Below, piece after piece: positions 39,001-54,000 of a DNA stretch of 64,000 nucleotides. A program made the position numbers. The number at the start of each line of letters is the position of its first letter. Positions within the stretch are counted from its first letter, which is position 1. This stretch comes from Candidatus Eiseniibacteriota bacterium (GTDB taxonomy: Bacteria > Eisenbacteria > RBG-16-71-46 > DASYSL01): positions 32,001 through 96,000 of the forward strand of contig JANPEF010000153.1 in assembly GCA_031431875.1 (NCBI GenBank). Reading direction: 5' to 3'.

Positions 39001-42000
39001 GCCCGAGAAGCTGGCCAGGGAGACCGGGCCTCCCCCCAGCTCGGTCTTGGTGAAGTTGGGGGCGACCGAGCCGTGCACCACGGCGGCCGCGGCGGCGGGG
39101 ATCCCCGCCGGGGGGACCGCAGCCGATCCCAGGATGAGTCCCAGGGCGAGGAGCGGGCCGGCGACGAGTCGGTCGGCGGGTCGAGGACGGCGGTGGGGGC
39201 TCATGACGGGGCTCCGGGCTCGGGAATTCGTACGGTTGATCCTGCGATCTGCCGAAGGTACGGGAGGGCAGTGGGCATTGTGACTCCGTCCGCCCTCGGG
39301 CGTCCGGTTTCGGCTCAAGCTCCTTTGCAACGTGCCGATGACGGATGCGTCGGGGGAATGCGCCCCCGAAAACGGTTGCGATTCAGGGAGGAAACCGCCG
39401 TGGTCGTCGTCAGCTACTCGGGCAAGGAAATCAACGCCAAGCTGGTCTATTACGGCACCGGGCTTTCGGGCAAGACGACGAACCTCGAGGCCATCTACGA
39501 AGCCGTCCCCGACAACAGTCGCGGGAAGATGGTGTCGATGAAGACGCAGTCCGACCGCACCCTGTTCTTCGACCTGCTGCCGCTCGACCTGGGCGAGGTC
39601 ATGGGGTTCAAGACCCGCTTCCTCCTCTACACGGTTCCGGGCCAGGTCTTCTACAACGCCACGCGCAAGCTGGTGCTCAAGGGTGCCGATGCGATCGTGT
39701 TCGTCGCCGACTCCGAACGCGGCAAGATGGACGAGAACAAGGAGTCGCTGTCGAACCTCCGCGCCAACCTCGCGGAGTACAAGGTCAACCTCGACGACCT
39801 GCCGTGGGTGCTGCAGTACAACAAGCGCGACCTGCCCGACGTCTACACGGTCGAGGAACTGAATCGCGAGCTCAACCCGAGCAACGTCCCCTGGGTCGAA
39901 GGCGTGGCCACCAAGGGCACGGGCGTCCTCGAGACGTTCCGCCTGGTGAGCCAGATGCTGCTCGAGCGGGTGACCAAGGACCTGCGACGGTCGCCCTCGA
40001 CGACCGGCGCGCGCGAGGTGCCACGTCCCGCACCGGCCCAGTCGCCGAGTGCGCCGCAGGCGGCCTCGGCCGGTCCGGTGGCGATGCCGTCGTCGCCCCC
40101 ACCGCCGACGTTCCGCGCGACTGCCGCTCCGGTCGCGCCGCAGGCTCCGAGTCCGTTTGCGCCGCAGCCGGTCGCCGCCGCACCATTGTCGCCGCTGCCT
40201 GCCATCTCCATGCCGCAGGTCCCCGGCCTGGTCACCGGATCATCGCCCTTCACTCCGTCCAGCCGGGGAGAGATCGGGACGCACCCGGCCGCAGACCGTG
40301 CCGACCGGAACGCGCCTGCCCCACCGCCGCTGCGCAGCATGCAGAAGGAGGGCCCCGGGCCGGTCATGGACCTCGGGACGAACTTCCAGCGCAACATCCA
40401 GTTGCCCACCGAGGAGCGCCTGGCCCGTCCGGCGGTCGCGAGCGAGCCGCTGGTGGTGCCCATCACGCTCGACGGCTCGGTGCGGGAGATCGTCCTGCGC
40501 ATCGTCATCGAGCAGAAGGAGCGCGTCGACCGCGCCGCTTGACACCCTGCCGTACCGGGGGCCAGACTCGCAGGGCGTGCCGGGATCTTCCCGGTGCGCC
40601 CTGAGTGCTTTCGGAGGAGCGATGCGTTCGTCCTGCGCCGCCACCCTGTTCGTGCTTCTCCTCGTCGCCACGCCCGGGCATGCCCAGGGCGGGGCGGGCT
40701 TCCCGTCGACGGCGATCCCGTCGAGCGAGTCGTACTCCACGCCTCGGTCGACGAATCTCCTGCCGCGCTCGATCTTCGATCCCTCGCGGCTGACCATCTC
40801 GAACTCGATGGTCTTCGGCTACAGCTCGGGCGGATACGGCTTCAGCCCCGGCTCGGCCGGGCTGTTCACCTCGAGCCTCGGCTACCGCATCGCGAACAAC
40901 GCCGCCCTGCACGTCGACGTCGGCGCGCACATGAACCCCGCGTTCGGCGGCGGCGGCACCGAGAAGGGGATCTTCCTCCAGAGTGCGGCGTTCGACTGGC
41001 GCCCGACGCGCAACTCGCTGCTTCGCGTCGAGTACCGAGACATGCGCTCGCCGCTGCAGGCCGGCTACGGGTACGGCAACGCATACGGCTACGGCAACGG
41101 CTACGGAACGGGGCTCGGCGGGTGGGGCACGCCTTACGGCGCCAACCTCGGCGCGGGAGCTCCGCTCGGCGGCGGCCTGCCGGGCGATCCGCTGCGCAAC
41201 TGAGCGCGTGACGACGCGACCGCACTCCCTCCTCGAGACACGACTGCGGGGCCTGCGCGCCGAAGGGCGCGCGGGCCTCGTGCCGTTTCTCACCGCCGGC
41301 TATCCCGACCGCGCGATCAGCGCGCGCCTGCTCGTCGCCTGTGCGCGCGCGGGGGCGACCGCCATCGAACTGGGGCTGCCGTTCTCGGATCCGCTTGCCG
41401 ATGGCCCCGCGCTGCAGGAGGCCGCGCAGGTTGCGCTCGACGGTGGCACCACCGTGGCGCACGCCCTGGCGCTGGTGCGCGACTTCGCCGCGACGCCCCA
41501 GGGTGCTGCCGTTCCCATCGTGATCATGACCTACGCGAACCCGGTGCTCGCCTACGGGTTCGAGCGCTTCGCTCGCGATGCCGCCGCCGCCGGCGTCAAC
41601 GGCGTGATCGTGTCGGACCTGCCGCTCGAGGAGCGCGCGGACGTGTGGGCCGCCTTTGCCGCGGCGGGACTCGACACGATCCCGCTTGTCGCGCCGACGA
41701 CGGCGGCCGCGCGCGTGCCCGGGATCGCGGCGCGCGCCTCGGGCTTCGTCTACTGCCTGTCGCGCACGGGAGTGACCGGCGATGCGCGTGCCTTCGCCGG
41801 CGAGCTCGACGACCTGGTGCGCGCTGTGCGTCTCCACACCGACGTGCCGATCGGCATCGGCTTCGGCGTCGACGACGCGGCCAAGGCGCGCTTCGTCGCG
41901 CAGCGGGCCGAGGCGGTGATCGTGGGGGCGGCGGTGGCGCGGCGGATCGCTGTGGCGCGGGCGGCGGGGGGCGATGCGGTCGTCGCCGCCGTGGAGGCGT

Positions 42001-51000: not shown

Positions 51001-54000
51001 CACGCTCGATCCGCCGCAAGGCGCGCGAGGTCGAGGCCTCGACGCGCCGGCTCGACCAGCGTCTCGGTCGCGCGGCCTCCGACGAGGAGGTCGCCAAGGA
51101 GGCCAAGATGCCGCTGGCCGACTACCACCGGCTCATGGACCAGGTGCGGGGCGCGGTGCTGCTGTCGCTCGACGAGACGCGCTCGCCCGAGGAGGGCGAC
51201 TCGCTCGGCCTGGCCGAGCTCATCGAGGACCCGAACGTGCCGGACGTGCTGGCGCGCATCGAGGAGGAGGAGACGCGTCTCGTCCTGCTCGACACGCTCA
51301 ACCGCCTGCCCGAGCAGGAGCGCATTGTGGTCGCGCTCTACTACTACGAGCACATGACCCTGCGCGAGATCGGCGTCACGCTCGGCATCTCCGAGTCGCG
51401 CGTGTCGCAGGTCCACTCACGGGCCGTCGTCCGTCTCAAGAGCCGCGTCCGTCGCGCGCTCGCCGCCTGAGGATCCCGTGACCCTGCCCCTGCCGAACCC
51501 TGACTTCGAGCCCGTGCCCCGGGAGACCGGCGATCCGGCGTTGCTCGCGCTGGCCGGGCGCCTGCGCGCGCGCGGCGACGCCGCGAGCATTTCGCTGGCG
51601 GACGAGCTCACGGCCGAGGCCCGGCGCCTGGGTGCCGAACGGGACGCCACGCTCCAGCGCATGTTCGAGAGCCTGGCGGTGAACCACGACGTCAACAACG
51701 CGCTGGTCGGGATCTTCGGCAACGCGCAGCTGCTGGGCCTGGGGCCCGCGGGGCAGATCCCGGGCGTCGCCGACCGGCTCGCCGTGATCACGCGCGAGGC
51801 GAACCGCATCAAGCAGGCGGCCCTGCGCATCGCGGAGCTCAAGCAGGGCCTGCTCGCGCGGCCGCTCGATGACGGCGGTGCGGCGTGAGCCCGCGCGCGA
51901 AGGGAACCAGGCCAGGAGCGAAGTCGACCCGTCGCACGCCCGCCGCGGGCGAGGGTGCGGCGGCTCGGCTGGCCGCGCTGGCCGACATCGTTGCGCTGGT
52001 GCGCGAGCGCCCCGACGCGGACGACGCGCTCGGCCGGGCCCTCGATCGCCTCGGCGAGACCGTGGCGTTCGAGAGCGCGACCTTCTTCCTGCTCGATGAC
52101 GTGAGTGGCGAGCTGCAGCCGGTCGCCACGCGCGGCGCACACGTCGACCTGATTCCGGAAGTGCGCTTCGACCTGGGCGTCGGACTGTCGTCGTGGGTGG
52201 CGCGCACCGGCCGACCGGTGCTGCTGTCCGACCTGCGGGGCGAGGCGCGGCCCGACGCAGTCGATGCGCCCCGACACGGCTCGTTCGTGTCGGTGCCGAT
52301 GGTCGTCAACAGGGTGTCGATCGGCGTGCTCAACGCGGGCAGCCGGGAGCCGGGAGCGTTCAACGAAGCCGATCGCGACCTCCTGGTCGCCGCCGCCGCC
52401 GCGCTCGCCGCGCCGATCGTGGCCCGCCGCGCTGCGCGCGACGCCGACCGCCGGCCGGGCGCCGATCCGGCGACGGGCCTGCTCAACCGGCTCGCCTTCG
52501 AGGAGCGCGTCGCCGAGGCGATCGAGCGCGGCCGTCGCTACGCCGAGCGCTGCGCCATCGTCGTCCTGTCGTTCGACGGCCTGGCCGCCCTGCGCCGCAC
52601 GGCGGGGCTGACCGTGGCTGGCGAGGCGCTGGTCGCGATTGCCGGGCTGCTGACGGCCCGGGCGCGGCAGAGTGACCTCGTGGCCCGGCTGGTCCCCGAC
52701 GACGCCTTCGCGCTGCTGCTGGCGCACCAGGGCGCCGACGCCGCAGGGCGTGCCGTCGAGCGGCTCGCCGCGACGATCGCACGCCACCCGTTCGCCGATC
52801 TTCGCCGCTGCACGCCGGGCACGGGCGTCGCCCTGTGGCCCGTCGCGACCGGCCCCGGCGCGGATGGATTCGCCTCGGCCGCGACCTGCGCCCAGGAACT
52901 CGTCGCCGCGGCGCTCGCCGCCGCGCGCGTCGACGCCGCGGTGGATGCATCCGCGGATCCCGTGGTGCCGCCCGCCCCCGCGGAGGCCGCGTGAACCTGT
53001 CGGCCGAGGGTCTGGCGATCCCGGGGCGCATTCTCGTCGTCGACGACGAACCCGCCGTCGCCGAGGTCTTCCGCGACTACCTGACGCTCATGGGCGGCCA
53101 CGAGGTCGAGACACGCTCGTCGGGCGCGCTCGCGCTCGAGGCGTTCGAGGCGTTCGAGCCCGAGGTCGTGCTCACCGACCTCAACCTCGATCGCGACATG
53201 TCGGGGCTCGACCTGATGCGCCGGCTCAAGGCGATGAACCCGGACGTGCCGGTCATCCTGGTCACCGGGCAGGTGTCGATCGCCTCGGCGATTGCCGCAC
53301 TGCGCGAGGGCGCCTACGACTACATCACGAAGCCGTGCGACCTCGAGGAACTGGGCCAGCTCCTCGGGCGCGCGCTCGCCTCGCGTCGCCTGACCGAGAC
53401 CAACCGCAAGCTGATGTCGGAACTGAAGACCGCGAACGAGATCCTGTCGCGTCACGAGTCGGAGCTGCGCGAGCGGATCCACGTCGCGACGTGGCGCATG
53501 CGCACGCTGTTCGAGCTGTCGAAGGACATCGCCCGCGACCTGGGGATCGAGTTCCGCTCGCGCGTCATCTCCGAGAAGGCCCGCCAGATCACCGGTGCGG
53601 CGAGCTCGGCGTTGTTCATCGCCGGCGAGGAGGACGGCATCTTCCGGGCCCGCGCCGTGTCGGGCTTCGAGGGACCCGGCGGCGGGCCCGAGGGCCTCGT
53701 CTTCCGTTCCGAAGAGGGCCTCAACGGCGTCGTCGCCGCGAGCCAGACGCCGATCCGGCGCGGCGGTCGCGTGCACGCCGAGGGGCTGGGCCTGCCCGTG
53801 CCCGCCGGCGAGCCGTGCGAGGGCGTGCTCGTCGTCCCGCTGGTGGCCGACGCGCGCGTCGTGGGCACGCTCATGGTGATGGGGAAGGCCGGCGGCTTCA
53901 CCCAGGACGACGAGGACTTCCTCGCCCTGTTCGCCTCGTCGGCGGCCATCGCGCTCACCAACTCGATGCTGTTCGAGCAGACGCTCGAGCTCGATCGCCT

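Follow-up and report, generated by a model that had tools for sequence, protein, structure and literature searches.

The cluster in the window and its surroundings

The window analysed here, 64,000 nucleotides from the MAG of an uncultured soil Candidatus Eisenbacteria (166 contigs, 98.45% complete), contains the central part of a cluster of regulatory genes that is conserved across Candidatus Eisenbacteria. All coordinates count along the window, so that the cluster region 39300-51480 is read without any subtraction of 32000; genes are our own ORF predictions, and all promoters are predicted, as consensus matches only. The span reached by subtracting 32000, at 7300-19480, holds the dcw cell-division cluster.

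A sigma28-type promoter (TCAAGCTC-N11-GCCGATGA, 39315..39341, +) matches the consensus 59 nt upstream of mglA; it occupies the same place in G015, and similar sites occur in relatives from families f8, f10 and f13. The mglA product (39400..40542, +) is an MglA-type small GTPase over residues 3-193 (PDB MglA, E 1e-69); a Pfam search gave no match for the C-terminal remainder, which extends the protein by about 185 aa. This paralogue is present in 99/101 genomes. Further along, on the reverse strand, a small unit (42162..42306, -) combines another sigma28-type promoter, TCAAG-N15-TCGATGA (42280-42306, -), with GGAGG and a 20-codon ORF (42162-42224), downstream of which lies a terminator-like hairpin. 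Homologous micro-ORFs are found in L118, with TCAAG-N15-GCCGATAT, and in L006.

The cluster proper begins with a membrane GAF-PP2C (SpoIIE-type) phosphatase (42363..44546, -; Pfam SpoIIE 138.7 bits), which is divergent to csrA and keeps its synteny in most of 80 loci. Across from it, a sigma28-type promoter (TCAAGCCC-N12-GCCGATCA, 44656..44683, +) is located 62 nt upstream of csrA1 (44745..45011, +; 88 aa, NCBIfam CsrA 95.3 bits, cut-off 73), followed by a 65-aa flgM homologue (45049..45246, +; Pfam FlgM E 0.05), a candidate anti-sigma28 factor. Then come a PAS histidine kinase (45303..46532, +; Pfam) and a REC-AAA+-HTH sigma54 enhancer-binding response regulator (46504..48012, +; Pfam Sigma54_activat 227 bits), whose NCBIfam FlbD and FlgR matches are both under their cut-offs. 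A consensus match to a sigma54-type promoter (TGGCAC-N5-GTGCA, 48210..48225, +) precedes a CheY-like single-domain receiver (48279..48647, +; Pfam Response_reg 100 bits), whose stop codon is overlapped by the gene for an 81-aa stand-alone sigma70 region-4 protein (48644..48889, +). The next ORF (48879..49136, +; 85 aa, family unassigned) is present only in the closest relatives. A second sigma54-type consensus match (TGGCAC-N5-TTGCG, 49414..49429, +) stands 57 nt upstream of the gene for a FleN/FlhG-type MinD-like ATPase (49486..50373, +), which is closest to P. aeruginosa FleN (PDB 5j1j, E 6e-58) and also matches FlhG (1e-41) and MinD (2e-31). It is followed by FliA, or sigma28 (50394..51470, +; TIGR02479 252 bits, cut-off 189.6; NF005413 235.4 bits, cut-off 201), whose start is uncertain (50394 or 50619) and whose N-terminal stretch is rich in Lys, Ala and Pro.

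Three more genes belong here. A 136-aa protein with a helix that weakly resembles HisKA/DHp (51478..51888, +; Pfam HisKA E 0.011) runs past the end of the region described in an earlier note on this DNA, yet it is a member of the conserved cluster, syntenic in most loci; it is followed by a GAF-GGDEF diguanylate cyclase (51885..52994, +; Pfam), which also adjoins fliA in flagellated G026 and G102, and a REC-GAF hybrid histidine kinase (52991..54709, +; Pfam and synteny). The identities proposed earlier for the FliA, FleN, csrA, MglA-like and FlgM-like genes hold by NCBIfam, PDB and Pfam comparison. The whole order, from the reverse-strand PP2C gene through csrA-flgM, PAS kinase, sigma54 activator, CheY-like receiver, region-4 protein, FleN and FliA to the DHp-like protein, GGDEF enzyme and hybrid kinase, recurs in synteny at almost every one of the 80 FliA loci, and its right half (fleN-fliA to the GGDEF and kinase genes, with flanks) corresponds to the locus downstream of flhA in G026 and G102.

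FliA and FliW without a flagellum

The genome gave no match to Flagellin_N, FHIPEP or Flg_bb_rod at E<=1, nor to FliG_C or CheW at E<=0.01, in agreement with the earlier claim that the flagellum is absent. Among 97 ORFs from the flagellar clusters of three relatives, 72, including three FlhA ORFs, had no tblastn match in it; the 25 that matched were FleN, FliA, kinases, EBPs and flanking genes. In an incomplete genome of 166 contigs an absent match is no proof of absence, and flagellar genes might have been missed in binning or assembly. However, we consider this extremely improbable: the genome is 98.45% complete, FlhA is missing in 5/5 sampled members of the same family too, three single-contig relatives (G054, G081 and G084) carry FliA while neither FHIPEP nor Flagellin_N was found in them, and the place upstream of fleN that holds flhA-flhF in G026 is contiguous here and occupied by other genes. 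Across the phylum, FliA is present in 150/151 sampled genomes (118/118 of the high-quality ones; some f2 genomes have two copies) and FlhA in 51/151. Having FliA but not FlhA is the norm, seen in about two thirds of the sample, and does not single out one genome that lost its flagellum once.

On contig C115 we found, as had been noted, fliW (94.6 bits) with a second csrA, CsrA2 (85.7 bits), and an HP0958/CT398-like gene (Zn_ribbon_9 44 bits, CT398_CC 33.7 bits). In flagellated Eisenbacteria the gene order is flgL-fliW-csrA-fliC-fliD-flaG-x-flgM. FliW is under purifying selection despite the absent flagellin, with dN/dS of 0.13 (G000, the present genome, against G085) and 0.26 (G065-G150), compared with 0.19 in a flagellated pair.

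Sigma28-type promoters and their predicted targets

Our recount of TCAAG-N13-15-[GC]CCGA[TA] gave the same 47 genomic sites as the earlier note and bore out their non-coding excess, with 17-18 sites in the 10.7% of the DNA that is non-coding against about 5 expected. For TCAAG-N13-15-GCCGAT, 13/27 sites fall within this fraction (binomial 1e-6); among the controls, in which the -35 element was permuted in 60 ways and the -10 in 180, the best were shifted forms of this motif, with 5 and 10 sites, and the rest had at most 5. Counts of the strict pattern and its backward control in five genomes were 7/3, 10/0, 9/1, 10/1 and 2/0. The kindred pattern T[CA]AAG-N14/15-nCCGA stands upstream of 9/9 flagellin genes in five flagellated relatives; a PWM built from these 9 flagellin sites alone barely separated coding from non-coding DNA. 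TCAAG-N13-15-GCCGAT is a real motif.

Every one of the sites reported before mglA, csrA, a PilB-family ATPase gene, pilM and flp was found again, although the gene called pilB is an MshE-like paralogue and the canonical PilB is encoded on contig C132. The csrA-flgM promoter was detected by pattern in 39/50 loci, and 10 more inspected loci have GCCGATA with a variant -35; this feedback promoter is ancestral. Before pilM the site is present in 3/4 f1 loci by pattern, plus one variant, and in 11/26 f2 loci, where 8 further loci carry TTCAG...GCCGAT in the same position and 7/26 a degenerate -10. The site before the MshE-like ATPase gene (15/21 by pattern) is kept across f1 and f2, and the Flp-pilin site, as had been cautioned, occurs in only three genomes, all from the same genus. 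Flagellated f10 members carry TAAAC-N15-GCCGAT before pilM (G102, G050) and TCAAG-N15-GCCGATAG before mglA (G021). Sigma54-type promoters occur at pilM, mglA and the MshE-like gene in f7 and f3, being found at pilM in 4/4 cases in flagellum-less f7 and, in place of a sigma28-type site, in 2/2 in the flagellated sister family f3. In the closed flagellum-less genomes G054 and G084, the strict motif precedes MreB-MreC, Rho, an RlpA-like (lytic transglycosylase-like) gene and a multicopper oxidase, as well as minor pilins, HEAT-repeat proteins and kinases, and in the present genome over half of all intergenic sites lie before non-pilus genes (TPR/DUF4388, kinases, DUF11, unknowns). The predicted sigma28 regulon is unstable.

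Proposed anti-sigma control and interpretation of the circuit

Two lines support identification of the 65-aa ORF as FlgM, its homology to a bona fide FlgM of flagellated relatives and a complex model; its own Pfam score, with the E of 0.05 noted before, is under the cut-off (14.2 bits). An ORF lies directly 3' of csrA in 49/50 loci; a profile of the family finds, at E 9e-14, an ORF downstream of fliD-flaG in G026 that passes the Pfam cut-off (27.9 bits against 25). Against the identification, only 13/45 homologues reach E<=0.1 and a PDB profile search found no FlgM. The modelled FliA-FlgM complex scored 0.65, against 0.00 for the best of 3 controls, a mark reached by 116/157 solved complexes and 2/215 mismatched pairs; at least 80% of contacts agree between runs, partner pLDDT is at least 63, and the interface pairs FliA 219-277 with FlgM 26-62. 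Since a sigma28/FlgM complex has already been solved, the model may have passed through its resemblance to that structure and not because the two proteins bind. The region-4 protein (Pfam Sigma70_r4 24.7 bits, cut-off 24.1), syntenic in 30 loci, aligns with FliA residues 221-279 (hhalign probability 97.1%), and 4/29 homologues match Pfam PhyR_sigma-like; it is conserved next to the receiver and is a candidate FlgM decoy. In the PhyR-NepR-EcfG partner switch of Alphaproteobacteria a sigma-like domain adjoins a receiver domain, and the circuit includes an anti-sigma factor. The same elements meet here, and the likeness suggests sigma mimicry, but the receiver and the sigma-like part are encoded by two genes, the latter has no sigma region other than 4, and the sigma factor belongs to the sigma28 type.

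From these data we infer a probable chain of control. The kinase and sigma54 activator would fire the sigma54 promoters of the cheY-like gene and fleN-fliA, as the consensus sites suggest; FliA would then read TCAAG-N15-GCCGAT(A) promoters, with csrA-flgM, pilMNO, the MshE-like pilus ATPase gene, the Flp/Tad operon, mglA, the 20-codon ORF and a number of genes for sensors and surface proteins as predicted targets; and FlgM would grip FliA through region 4. Transcription of csrA-flgM by FliA would give negative feedback through the anti-sigma factor, in addition to CsrA. In flagellated relatives the same module would also drive flagellin. As the genome has neither an export gate nor flagellin, FlgM and FliW can read neither hook completion nor flagellin, as the earlier note had argued, and FlgM and FliW-CsrA2 must be controlled by another signal. 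FliA, FlgM and FliW-CsrA have been kept without a flagellum in most of the phylum, where they apparently drive pilus and surface-motility genes. New in this work are the phylum-wide presence of FliA, the conservation of the cluster and of the csrA-flgM promoter, the support for FlgM and the purifying selection on FliW.

We consider the best overall explanation to be a flagellum-independent sigma28 module, derived from a flagellated ancestor, that serves surface appendages and motility (probability about 0.7). That the regulators are decaying, functionless leftovers, a reading already disfavoured, would suit the frequent flagellar losses in the phylum, the flhA in pieces in closed genome G032 and the fast divergence of FliW within f1 (46-59% identity between genera); it is nevertheless highly improbable, as open frames persist in about 100 FlhA-less genomes, FliW is constrained in close pairs, the csrA-flgM promoter is kept in essentially all loci and the present genome shows enrichment of the motif with no flagellar genes for it to serve. 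In the strong form of the earlier note's proposal, loss of the flagellum both preceded and caused a rewiring, in this lineage, of the late FliA/FlgM and FliW/CsrA checkpoint towards pili and Mgl motility. Its basis stands, with intact regulators and an enriched motif that marks flagellin genes of kin and is kept at csrA-flgM and, across f1 and f2, at pilM and the MshE-like gene. The contrast at pilM between f3 and f1 or f2 speaks for it, as do the recent gain of the Flp site within one genus and the f2 flagellar clusters with their own second FleN-FliA-FlgM set plus FlbT and FlaF, which would fit an f1 and f2 ancestor that had lost an old flagellum. Yet the cluster and its ancestral csrA-flgM promoter are phylum-wide, and FliA without FlhA is widespread; the f10 sites at pilM and mglA mean that at least some of the link to pili is older than the loss or did not depend on it, and the sigma54 promoters of f7 mean that loss does not predict sigma28 wiring. 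We regard such rewiring as unlikely. Somewhat less doubtful, though still tentative, is the reading of FliA as a general alternative sigma factor whose regulon, for envelope, cell shape and signalling, shifts from lineage to lineage. The universality of FliA, the diverse targets in G054 and G084 and the many non-pilus sites here favour this, and pilus genes would then be only a few of its targets, making 'motility circuit' too narrow a label; however, pilM, the MshE-like ATPase, minor pilins and mglA recur as targets in several families, and in many genomes 8-12 kb separate mglA from fliA.

A sigma28 module serving appendages and motility has partial parallels elsewhere. Chlamydia has sigma28 and a CT398/HP0958-family protein without flagella, as here, and keeps type III secretion; it is not known to have FlgM, FliW or CsrA, and the CT398 family is not known to be flagellum-specific. 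A study of Actinomycetota describes WhiG, of the sigma28 family, acting with RsiG and c-di-GMP, with type IV pilus genes as WhiG targets in Rubrobacter (PMC12871210). Common to both cases is a FliA/WhiG-family sigma factor kept in non-flagellated bacteria, with type IV pilus genes and c-di-GMP enzymes as its predicted or demonstrated targets, and flagellum-linked and flagellum-free copies are distinguished, as the two FliA copies of some f2 genomes recall. In that account, however, it is RsiG, armed by c-di-GMP, that acts as the anti-sigma factor, and almost all flagellar clusters lack FlgM (PMC12871210), whereas Eisenbacteria, of another phylum (FCB group), keep FlgM, predicted to be co-transcribed with csrA, and involve sigma54; no RsiG motif is visible in the sequence of the 136-aa protein next to FliA. 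Non-flagellated Lysobacter species that move by type IV pili keep fliA, and L. capsici retains the export genes flhA, flhB and fliPQR and has neither flgM nor fliC (PMC4960238), the reverse of the present pattern, in which flgM persists and the export genes have disappeared. The FliA-FlgM checkpoint and the FliW-CsrA-flagellin partner switch of Salmonella and Bacillus subtilis, as outlined in PMC12871210 and PMC13443453, share with this genome the protein families, a sigma28 promoter for flgM (feedback) and a fliW that adjoins csrA, but here there is no export apparatus for FlgM secretion and no flagellin for FliW to bind. FlgM is also short, with about 10 residues before the first conserved helix compared with about 35 or more in G026.

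The fliA locus and its spread through the phylum

The start and end reported for the finding are already window coordinates, and the interval obtained by subtracting 32,000 (7300-19480) was rejected as its place. That interval is the dcw cluster, which is complete at 4669-21564 and includes an FtsI-type PBP bearing PASTA domains. The gene order of the window (G+C ~72%) was read from Pfam, NCBIfam and PDB comparisons; the gene calls of the genome that carries it (G000) come from a home-made codon-bias caller (3083 genes, 89.4% coding). An MglA-type GTPase (39400-40542, +) is followed by an ORF plus trpA (40622-42044, +) and by a GAF-PP2C phosphatase on the reverse strand (42363-44546, -). 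Then come, all on the forward strand (+), csrA (44745-45011), a 65-aa FlgM-like ORF (45049-45246), a PAS kinase (45303-46532), a sigma54 activator (46504-48012), a CheY-like receiver (48279-48647), an 81-aa ORF with sigma region 4 only (48644-48889), an 85-aa ORF with no Pfam or NCBIfam match (48879-49136), FleN (49486-50373), FliA (to 51470), a DHp-like ORF of 136 aa (51478-51888), a GAF-GGDEF protein (51885-52994) and a hybrid kinase (52991-54709). Relatives of this FliA were found in 80 public loci at 57-99% identity, nearly all labelled Candidatus Eisenbacteria MAGs; in nearly all of them the order PP2C, csrA-flgM-kinase-EBP-CheY-FleN-FliA-DHp-GGDEF-kinase is syntenic and FleN lies directly before fliA. 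The 136-aa protein, which follows fliA in most loci, has a DHp-like H-box (…NHDVNNAL…) and no ATPase domain, and may be a phosphotransfer protein linking the hybrid kinase to receivers.

The structural flagellum is missing from G000, a genome of 98.45% completeness. Flagellin_N, FHIPEP and Flg_bb_rod gave no match there at E<=1, and FliG_C and CheW none at E<=0.01; RpoN is present. When 97 ORFs from the flagellar-cluster regions of three flagellated relatives were compared with G000 by tblastn, 72 were matchless, three FlhA ORFs included, and the other 25 were FleN, FliA, GGDEF, kinases, EBPs, ATPase or SRP-like proteins and flanking genes. A set of 58 ORFs from late-flagellar regions gave 15 matches, namely FliW, CsrA and unrelated genes. 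Incompleteness of the MAG was rejected as an explanation because FlhA is absent from all five sampled members of its family (f1), and three single-contig relatives (G054, G081, G084) likewise have FliA and lack both FHIPEP and Flagellin_N. In single-contig G032 (C1:1690443-1692397), flhA matches as three separate pieces, which points to decay of this flagellar gene, although the genome retains flagellin genes; G140 and G088 were noted as like cases.

The earlier note had described flagellar regulators kept in one flagellum-less genome. This was borne out, and the observation is confirmed and now extends to the whole phylum: among 151 sampled genomes, 118 of them high-quality, FliA/WhiG occurs in 150 at E<=1e-20 (143 over the cut-off) and in all 118 high-quality ones, while FlhA occurs in 51 (44 of the 118) and FliW in 39. 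FliW without FlhA was found in f1 (G000, G085, G015, G065, G150), f8 (G013, G100, G134), f12 (G041) and f13 (G071); G015 is an unpublished genome, on which the f1 tallies and its own rows for pilM, mglA, the MshE-like gene, FliW and Tad partly rest. In flagellated G026 (family f3) and G102 (f10), fleN-fliA follows flhA, and the GGDEF gene, the hybrid kinase and two more genes downstream match those of the window, so that, on sequence comparison, theirs is the same fliA locus. From the flhA-flhF-fleN-fliA linkage seen in these two, G000 retains only fleN-fliA. Family f2 has FlhA in 18 of 60 genomes and FliW in none of the 60; its flagellated members (e.g. G002) carry the conserved cluster plus a second FleN-FliA, 38% identical, beside flhA (loci L117 and L124 of G002, and L088-L095). 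Flagellin genes of these f2 genomes stand ahead of FlbT, FlaF and the second set's own weak FlgM, and FliW is lacking; this flagellar set looks to be of other origin than the FliW-type flagellar set of f3, f10 and f13.

A sigma28-type motif and the genes behind it

FliA belongs to the FliA/WhiG (sigma28) group: it scores 252 bits with TIGR02479 (cut-off 189.6) and 235.4 bits with NF005413 (cut-off 201), and Pfam regions r2, r3 and r4 are all present. The cognate promoter type, TAAAG-N15-GCCGATAA before late flagellar genes, is found in relatives, where T[CA]AAG-N14/15-nCCGA[AT] lies upstream of 9/9 flagellin genes in five flagellated genomes; another two Flagellin_N matches proved to be hook-associated genes located within operons. 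A position-weight matrix derived from these nine promoters alone gave just 11-25% intergenic matches at every threshold and was for that reason replaced by exact patterns checked against permutations. The pattern of the earlier note, TCAAG-N13-15-[GC]CCGA[TA], recounted to the same 47 matches in G000, 17-18 of them in the 10.7% of the DNA that is non-coding. Its strict form, TCAAG-N13-15-GCCGAT, has 27 matches, and 13 of these fall between genes (binomial 1e-6). When the -35 element was permuted in 60 ways, the next best was the shifted CAAGT at 5 intergenic sites (all others <=3); 180 permutations of the -10 element gave as next best the shifted TGCCGA at 10 (all others <=5). Intergenic sites of G000 extend to GCCGAT(A/G)N, and the strict motif with GCCGATA, set against a backward control, gave 7/3, 10/0, 9/1, 10/1 and 2/0 in five genomes; base composition around all 11,230 GCCGA[TA] sites yielded nothing useful. 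We infer that FliA of G000 probably reads these motif sites.

All promoter calls here are consensus matches, and those marked 'by eye' come from our own inspection. In G000 the sites precede an ATPase of MshEN-T2SSE-zinc-ribbon architecture (contig C88), pilM-pilN-pilO, the operon flp-prepilin peptidase-tadE-rcpC, mglA and csrA-flgM, as well as genes for a TPR protein and a DUF4388 protein, two kinases, DUF11 proteins and several unknowns. The site formerly assigned to pilB does exist, but the gene behind it is the MshE-like ATPase of C88, and it is C132 that carries the canonical PilB paralogue. The csrA promoter matches the pattern in 39 of 50 loci, with a -10 element ~55 nt before the ATG that is nearly always GCCGATAC; the other 10 loci that could be judged have GCCGATA 15-16 nt after TGAAG, TTCAG or TTAAG, and L029 has too little upstream DNA. 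The Flp site had been described as limited to close kin, and indeed just three genomes of one genus, G000, G085 and G152, have the exact site at that position, whereas G015 and G117 lack it. TadE of the flp operon occurs in 5/9 genomes of f1, 0/18 of f2 and 0/3 of f3.

For pilM, present in 146 of the 151 genomes, 50 upstream regions were examined and 19 match the pattern. The site is found in three of four f1 genomes, with a GCCGAC variant besides, and in 11 of 26 f2 genomes, where 8 more have TTCAG-N15/16-GCCGAT in the same place and 7 a degenerate -10; it is also present by pattern in f10 (G102, G050) and by eye in f8 (2/2). In f3 (2/2), f7 (4/4), f15 and f16, pilM has a sigma54-type site, TGGCA[CT]-N5-TTGC[AT], instead. 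The MshE-like ATPase has the sigma28-type site by pattern in 15 of 21 regions (f1 2/2; f2 11/13, plus two with GCCGATAA alone; f7 2/5) and a sigma54-type site in G019, G054 and, by eye, G022. Before mglA, 6 of 22 regions have a sigma28-type site within 150 nt (G000, G015, G090, G013, G092 and G021, a flagellated member of f10), and sigma54-like sites were seen by eye in G054, G019, G065 and G026. Over the compared loci of these three genes (L125-L174, L195-L244), sites are sigma28-type in f1, f2, f8 and f10 and sigma54-type in f3, f7, f15 and f16, and the promoter types seem to switch together. The proposal that the flagellar checkpoint circuit was rewired to pili and Mgl motility after loss of the flagellum is therefore supported only in part. 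The regulators are kept and the motif is enriched, but sigma28-type pilM and mglA sites also occur in flagellated f10, and pilM of flagellum-less f7 carries a sigma54-type site. The mechanism is most likely a flagellum-independent sigma28-FlgM module with CsrA.

In two closed flagellum-less genomes, G054 and G084, a coding-like ORF begins within 100 nt of 15 of the 20 strict sites. These ORFs are a mixed set: MreB-MreC, Rho, an RlpA-like gene, minor pilins, HEAT-repeat proteins and kinases. Several ORF starts in these genomes (L175-L192) lie just 6-9 nt past the GCCGATA box, a spacing that suits a leaderless-type layout. Almost every pilM match in f7 has one in-frame TAG or TAA in the aligned range; the true start codon may lie downstream of this stop. 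A conserved leader (…gtggagaaagggcggcaaggggctccatggg…) that matches no Rfam family precedes mglA in f2 genomes (L118 about 2350-2500, L197-L200).

FlgM, a candidate decoy and FliW-CsrA

Of 50 loci, 49 have a small ORF next after csrA, with the consensus VRxxRVxxARxRIAxGYYDRxxVRDRLVxAVLxEL. Pfam FlgM is the sole recurrent family among these ORFs (13/45 at E<=0.1), at scores below the PF04316 gathering score of 25 bits: the window protein reaches 14.2, and none of 45 homologues reaches 25. A PDB profile search with the alignment found no FlgM, just two weak VASP matches. In flagellated G026 a single ORF is picked up by the family profile (E 9e-14); it does pass Pfam FlgM (27.9 bits) and comes after fliD-flaG, the same layout being seen in G102. 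The FlhA-less G013 has the order fliW-csrA-flgM with TAAAG-N15-GCCGATCG between csrA and flgM, which looks like the late operon of G102, flgL-fliW-csrA-fliC-fliD-flaG-x-flgM, minus its structural genes. Modelled as a complex, FliA and the window FlgM score 0.65 (0.65, 0.65, 0.63), the best of three controls scoring 0.00; of 157 solved complexes, 116 come up to the mark applied, as do 2 of 215 mismatched pairs. At least 80% of contacts recur between runs, partner pLDDT is at least 63, and FliA 219-277 meets FlgM 26-62. A solved sigma28/FlgM complex exists, and the model therefore speaks for likeness rather than proof. The flagellar type III route for FlgM release is missing from G000, where there is no FHIPEP and the export-gate ORFs of relatives are matchless. 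FlgM of the window could still serve as an anti-sigma factor, though not as a hook-completion checkpoint.

The sigma54 pattern has 12 sites in G000, 8 of them intergenic; one of these (G000:C132:7855-7870, -) lies upstream of a gene of 135 aa close to pilMNO that may encode the major pilin. In the window, sigma54-type sites precede the CheY-like gene (48210-48225) and fleN-fliA (49414-49429). The 81-aa ORF overlaps the stop codon of the receiver gene and matches Pfam sigma region 4 with 24.7 bits (cut-off 24.1); 30 loci have a syntenic ORF after the receiver, with Sigma70_r4 matches in 25 of 29. Its profile aligns to FliA residues 221-279 with a probability of 97.1%, the same surface as that modelled for FlgM. 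In five other genomes, FliA's own region 4 is its best match (G054, G102, G013) or its second-best (G026, G081); no separate copy scores higher in the first three, and the gene may therefore be missing or divergent there. We propose this protein as a candidate FlgM decoy.

FliW (PF02623, 94.6 bits, over its cut-off) and CsrA2 (85.7 bits) are adjacent on contig C115, which also has a CT398-like gene and rpoD; fliW adjoins csrA in 11/11 loci examined, and the context RNase H, fliW-csrA2, CT398-like and rpoD is kept in G085, G065 and G150. The CT398-like protein has both the coiled coil (CT398_CC 33.7 bits, cut-off 27) and the C4 zinc ribbon (Zn_ribbon_9 44 bits, cut-off 29.1) that define the HP0958/CT398 family. 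A sigma54-type site, TGGCAC-N5-TTGCT, lies ~105 nt upstream of fliW. The dN/dS of FliW is 0.13 (G000-G085) and 0.26 (G065-G150), beside 0.19 in a flagellated pair (G026-G028), and is unreliable past the closest pairs because dS there is saturated (0.7-1.5). Flagellin, as FliW ligand or as CsrA mRNA target, is missing from G000 (no Flagellin_N at E<=1). FleN resembles PDB FleN (E 6e-58) ahead of FlhG (1e-41) and MinD (2e-31). Its partners FlhF and the flagellar C-ring were not found in G000: FliG_C is absent, and ORFs at the FlhF position of G102 and G002 match only an SRP-type stretch on C82 (31-32% identity). MglA aligns over residues 3-193 with MglA of M. xanthus and T. thermophilus (E 1e-69), and 99 of 101 genomes have this paralogue, in many cases at 8-12 kb from fliA. 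Its C-terminal extension of ~185 aa (39985-40542) has no Pfam or NCBIfam match, and most genomes have a second, canonical MglA of ~197 aa besides.

Taken together, these data could mean that the checkpoint is now a cytoplasmic partner switch, a reading to which we give about one chance in five. The region-4 copy, encoded after the receiver under a sigma54 promoter, would take FlgM off FliA upon receiver phosphorylation, signal-controlled sigma mimicry standing in for FlgM secretion. Alongside this, a ligand other than flagellin would decide whether FliW holds or releases CsrA2, and the two switches together would set the timing of pili, Tad fimbriae and MglA polarity.

Comparison with known systems

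Chlamydia has a sigma28 without flagella and, to our knowledge, has lost the flagellar anti-sigma factor. In PhyR-type mimicry, a sigma-like domain fused to a receiver binds the anti-sigma factor on phosphorylation; here, in contrast, receiver and sigma-like part are separate, overlapping genes and region 4 alone is present. As in Actinomycetota and Chlamydia, sigma28 persists without flagella, but FlgM is kept phylum-wide here, whereas there the flagellar anti-sigma factor is gone. The c-di-GMP motif of RsiG, which we take to be E-x3-S-x2-R-x3-Q-x3-D, is not visible on reading the sequence of the 136-aa protein after fliA. According to a study of Actinomycetota, WhiG-family sigma factors fall into a flagellum-linked clade and an RsiG/c-di-GMP-controlled clade, with type IV pilus targets in Rubrobacter, and almost all flagellar clusters of Actinomycetota lack FlgM (PMC12871210). 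Lysobacter, according to another report, keeps export genes and fliA and lacks flgM and fliC (PMC4960238), and a CsrA survey counts Eisenbacteria with the phyla in which few CsrAs are predicted repressors of B. subtilis hag (PMC13443453). A literature search, with most subscription journals outside its scope, returned no account of a flagellum-free FliA-FlgM or FliW-CsrA circuit, nor of flagellar regulation in Eisenbacteria.

In the textbook circuit, FlgM senses a secretion-competent hook-basal body and FliW senses cytoplasmic flagellin. Here both are missing, yet FlgM is kept by the whole phylum and FliW-CsrA by several lineages. Sensors kept without their structures therefore pose testable questions, namely how FlgM is inactivated without export and what FliW binds without flagellin; with no cultured member, the tests must be heterologous. 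With flagellated, decaying and flagellum-less members, the phylum offers a natural series for the re-use of a checkpoint circuit, within which shared pilus genes have sigma28 promoters in some members and sigma54 promoters in others.

Downstream of the PP2C gene (42162-42306, -), a sigma28-type promoter is followed by GGAGG, a 20-codon ORF ending in ...DLFWWLR and a terminator-like hairpin; neither the window nor L118 matches an Rfam family at gathering score. We judge a micro-protein to be no less probable a product of this place than a small RNA. A homologous 18-codon ORF (...DLLWWIRR) stands behind TCAAG-N15-GCCGATAT in G002 (L118 about 5050-5270, -), and L006 has a counterpart near 148 (-).
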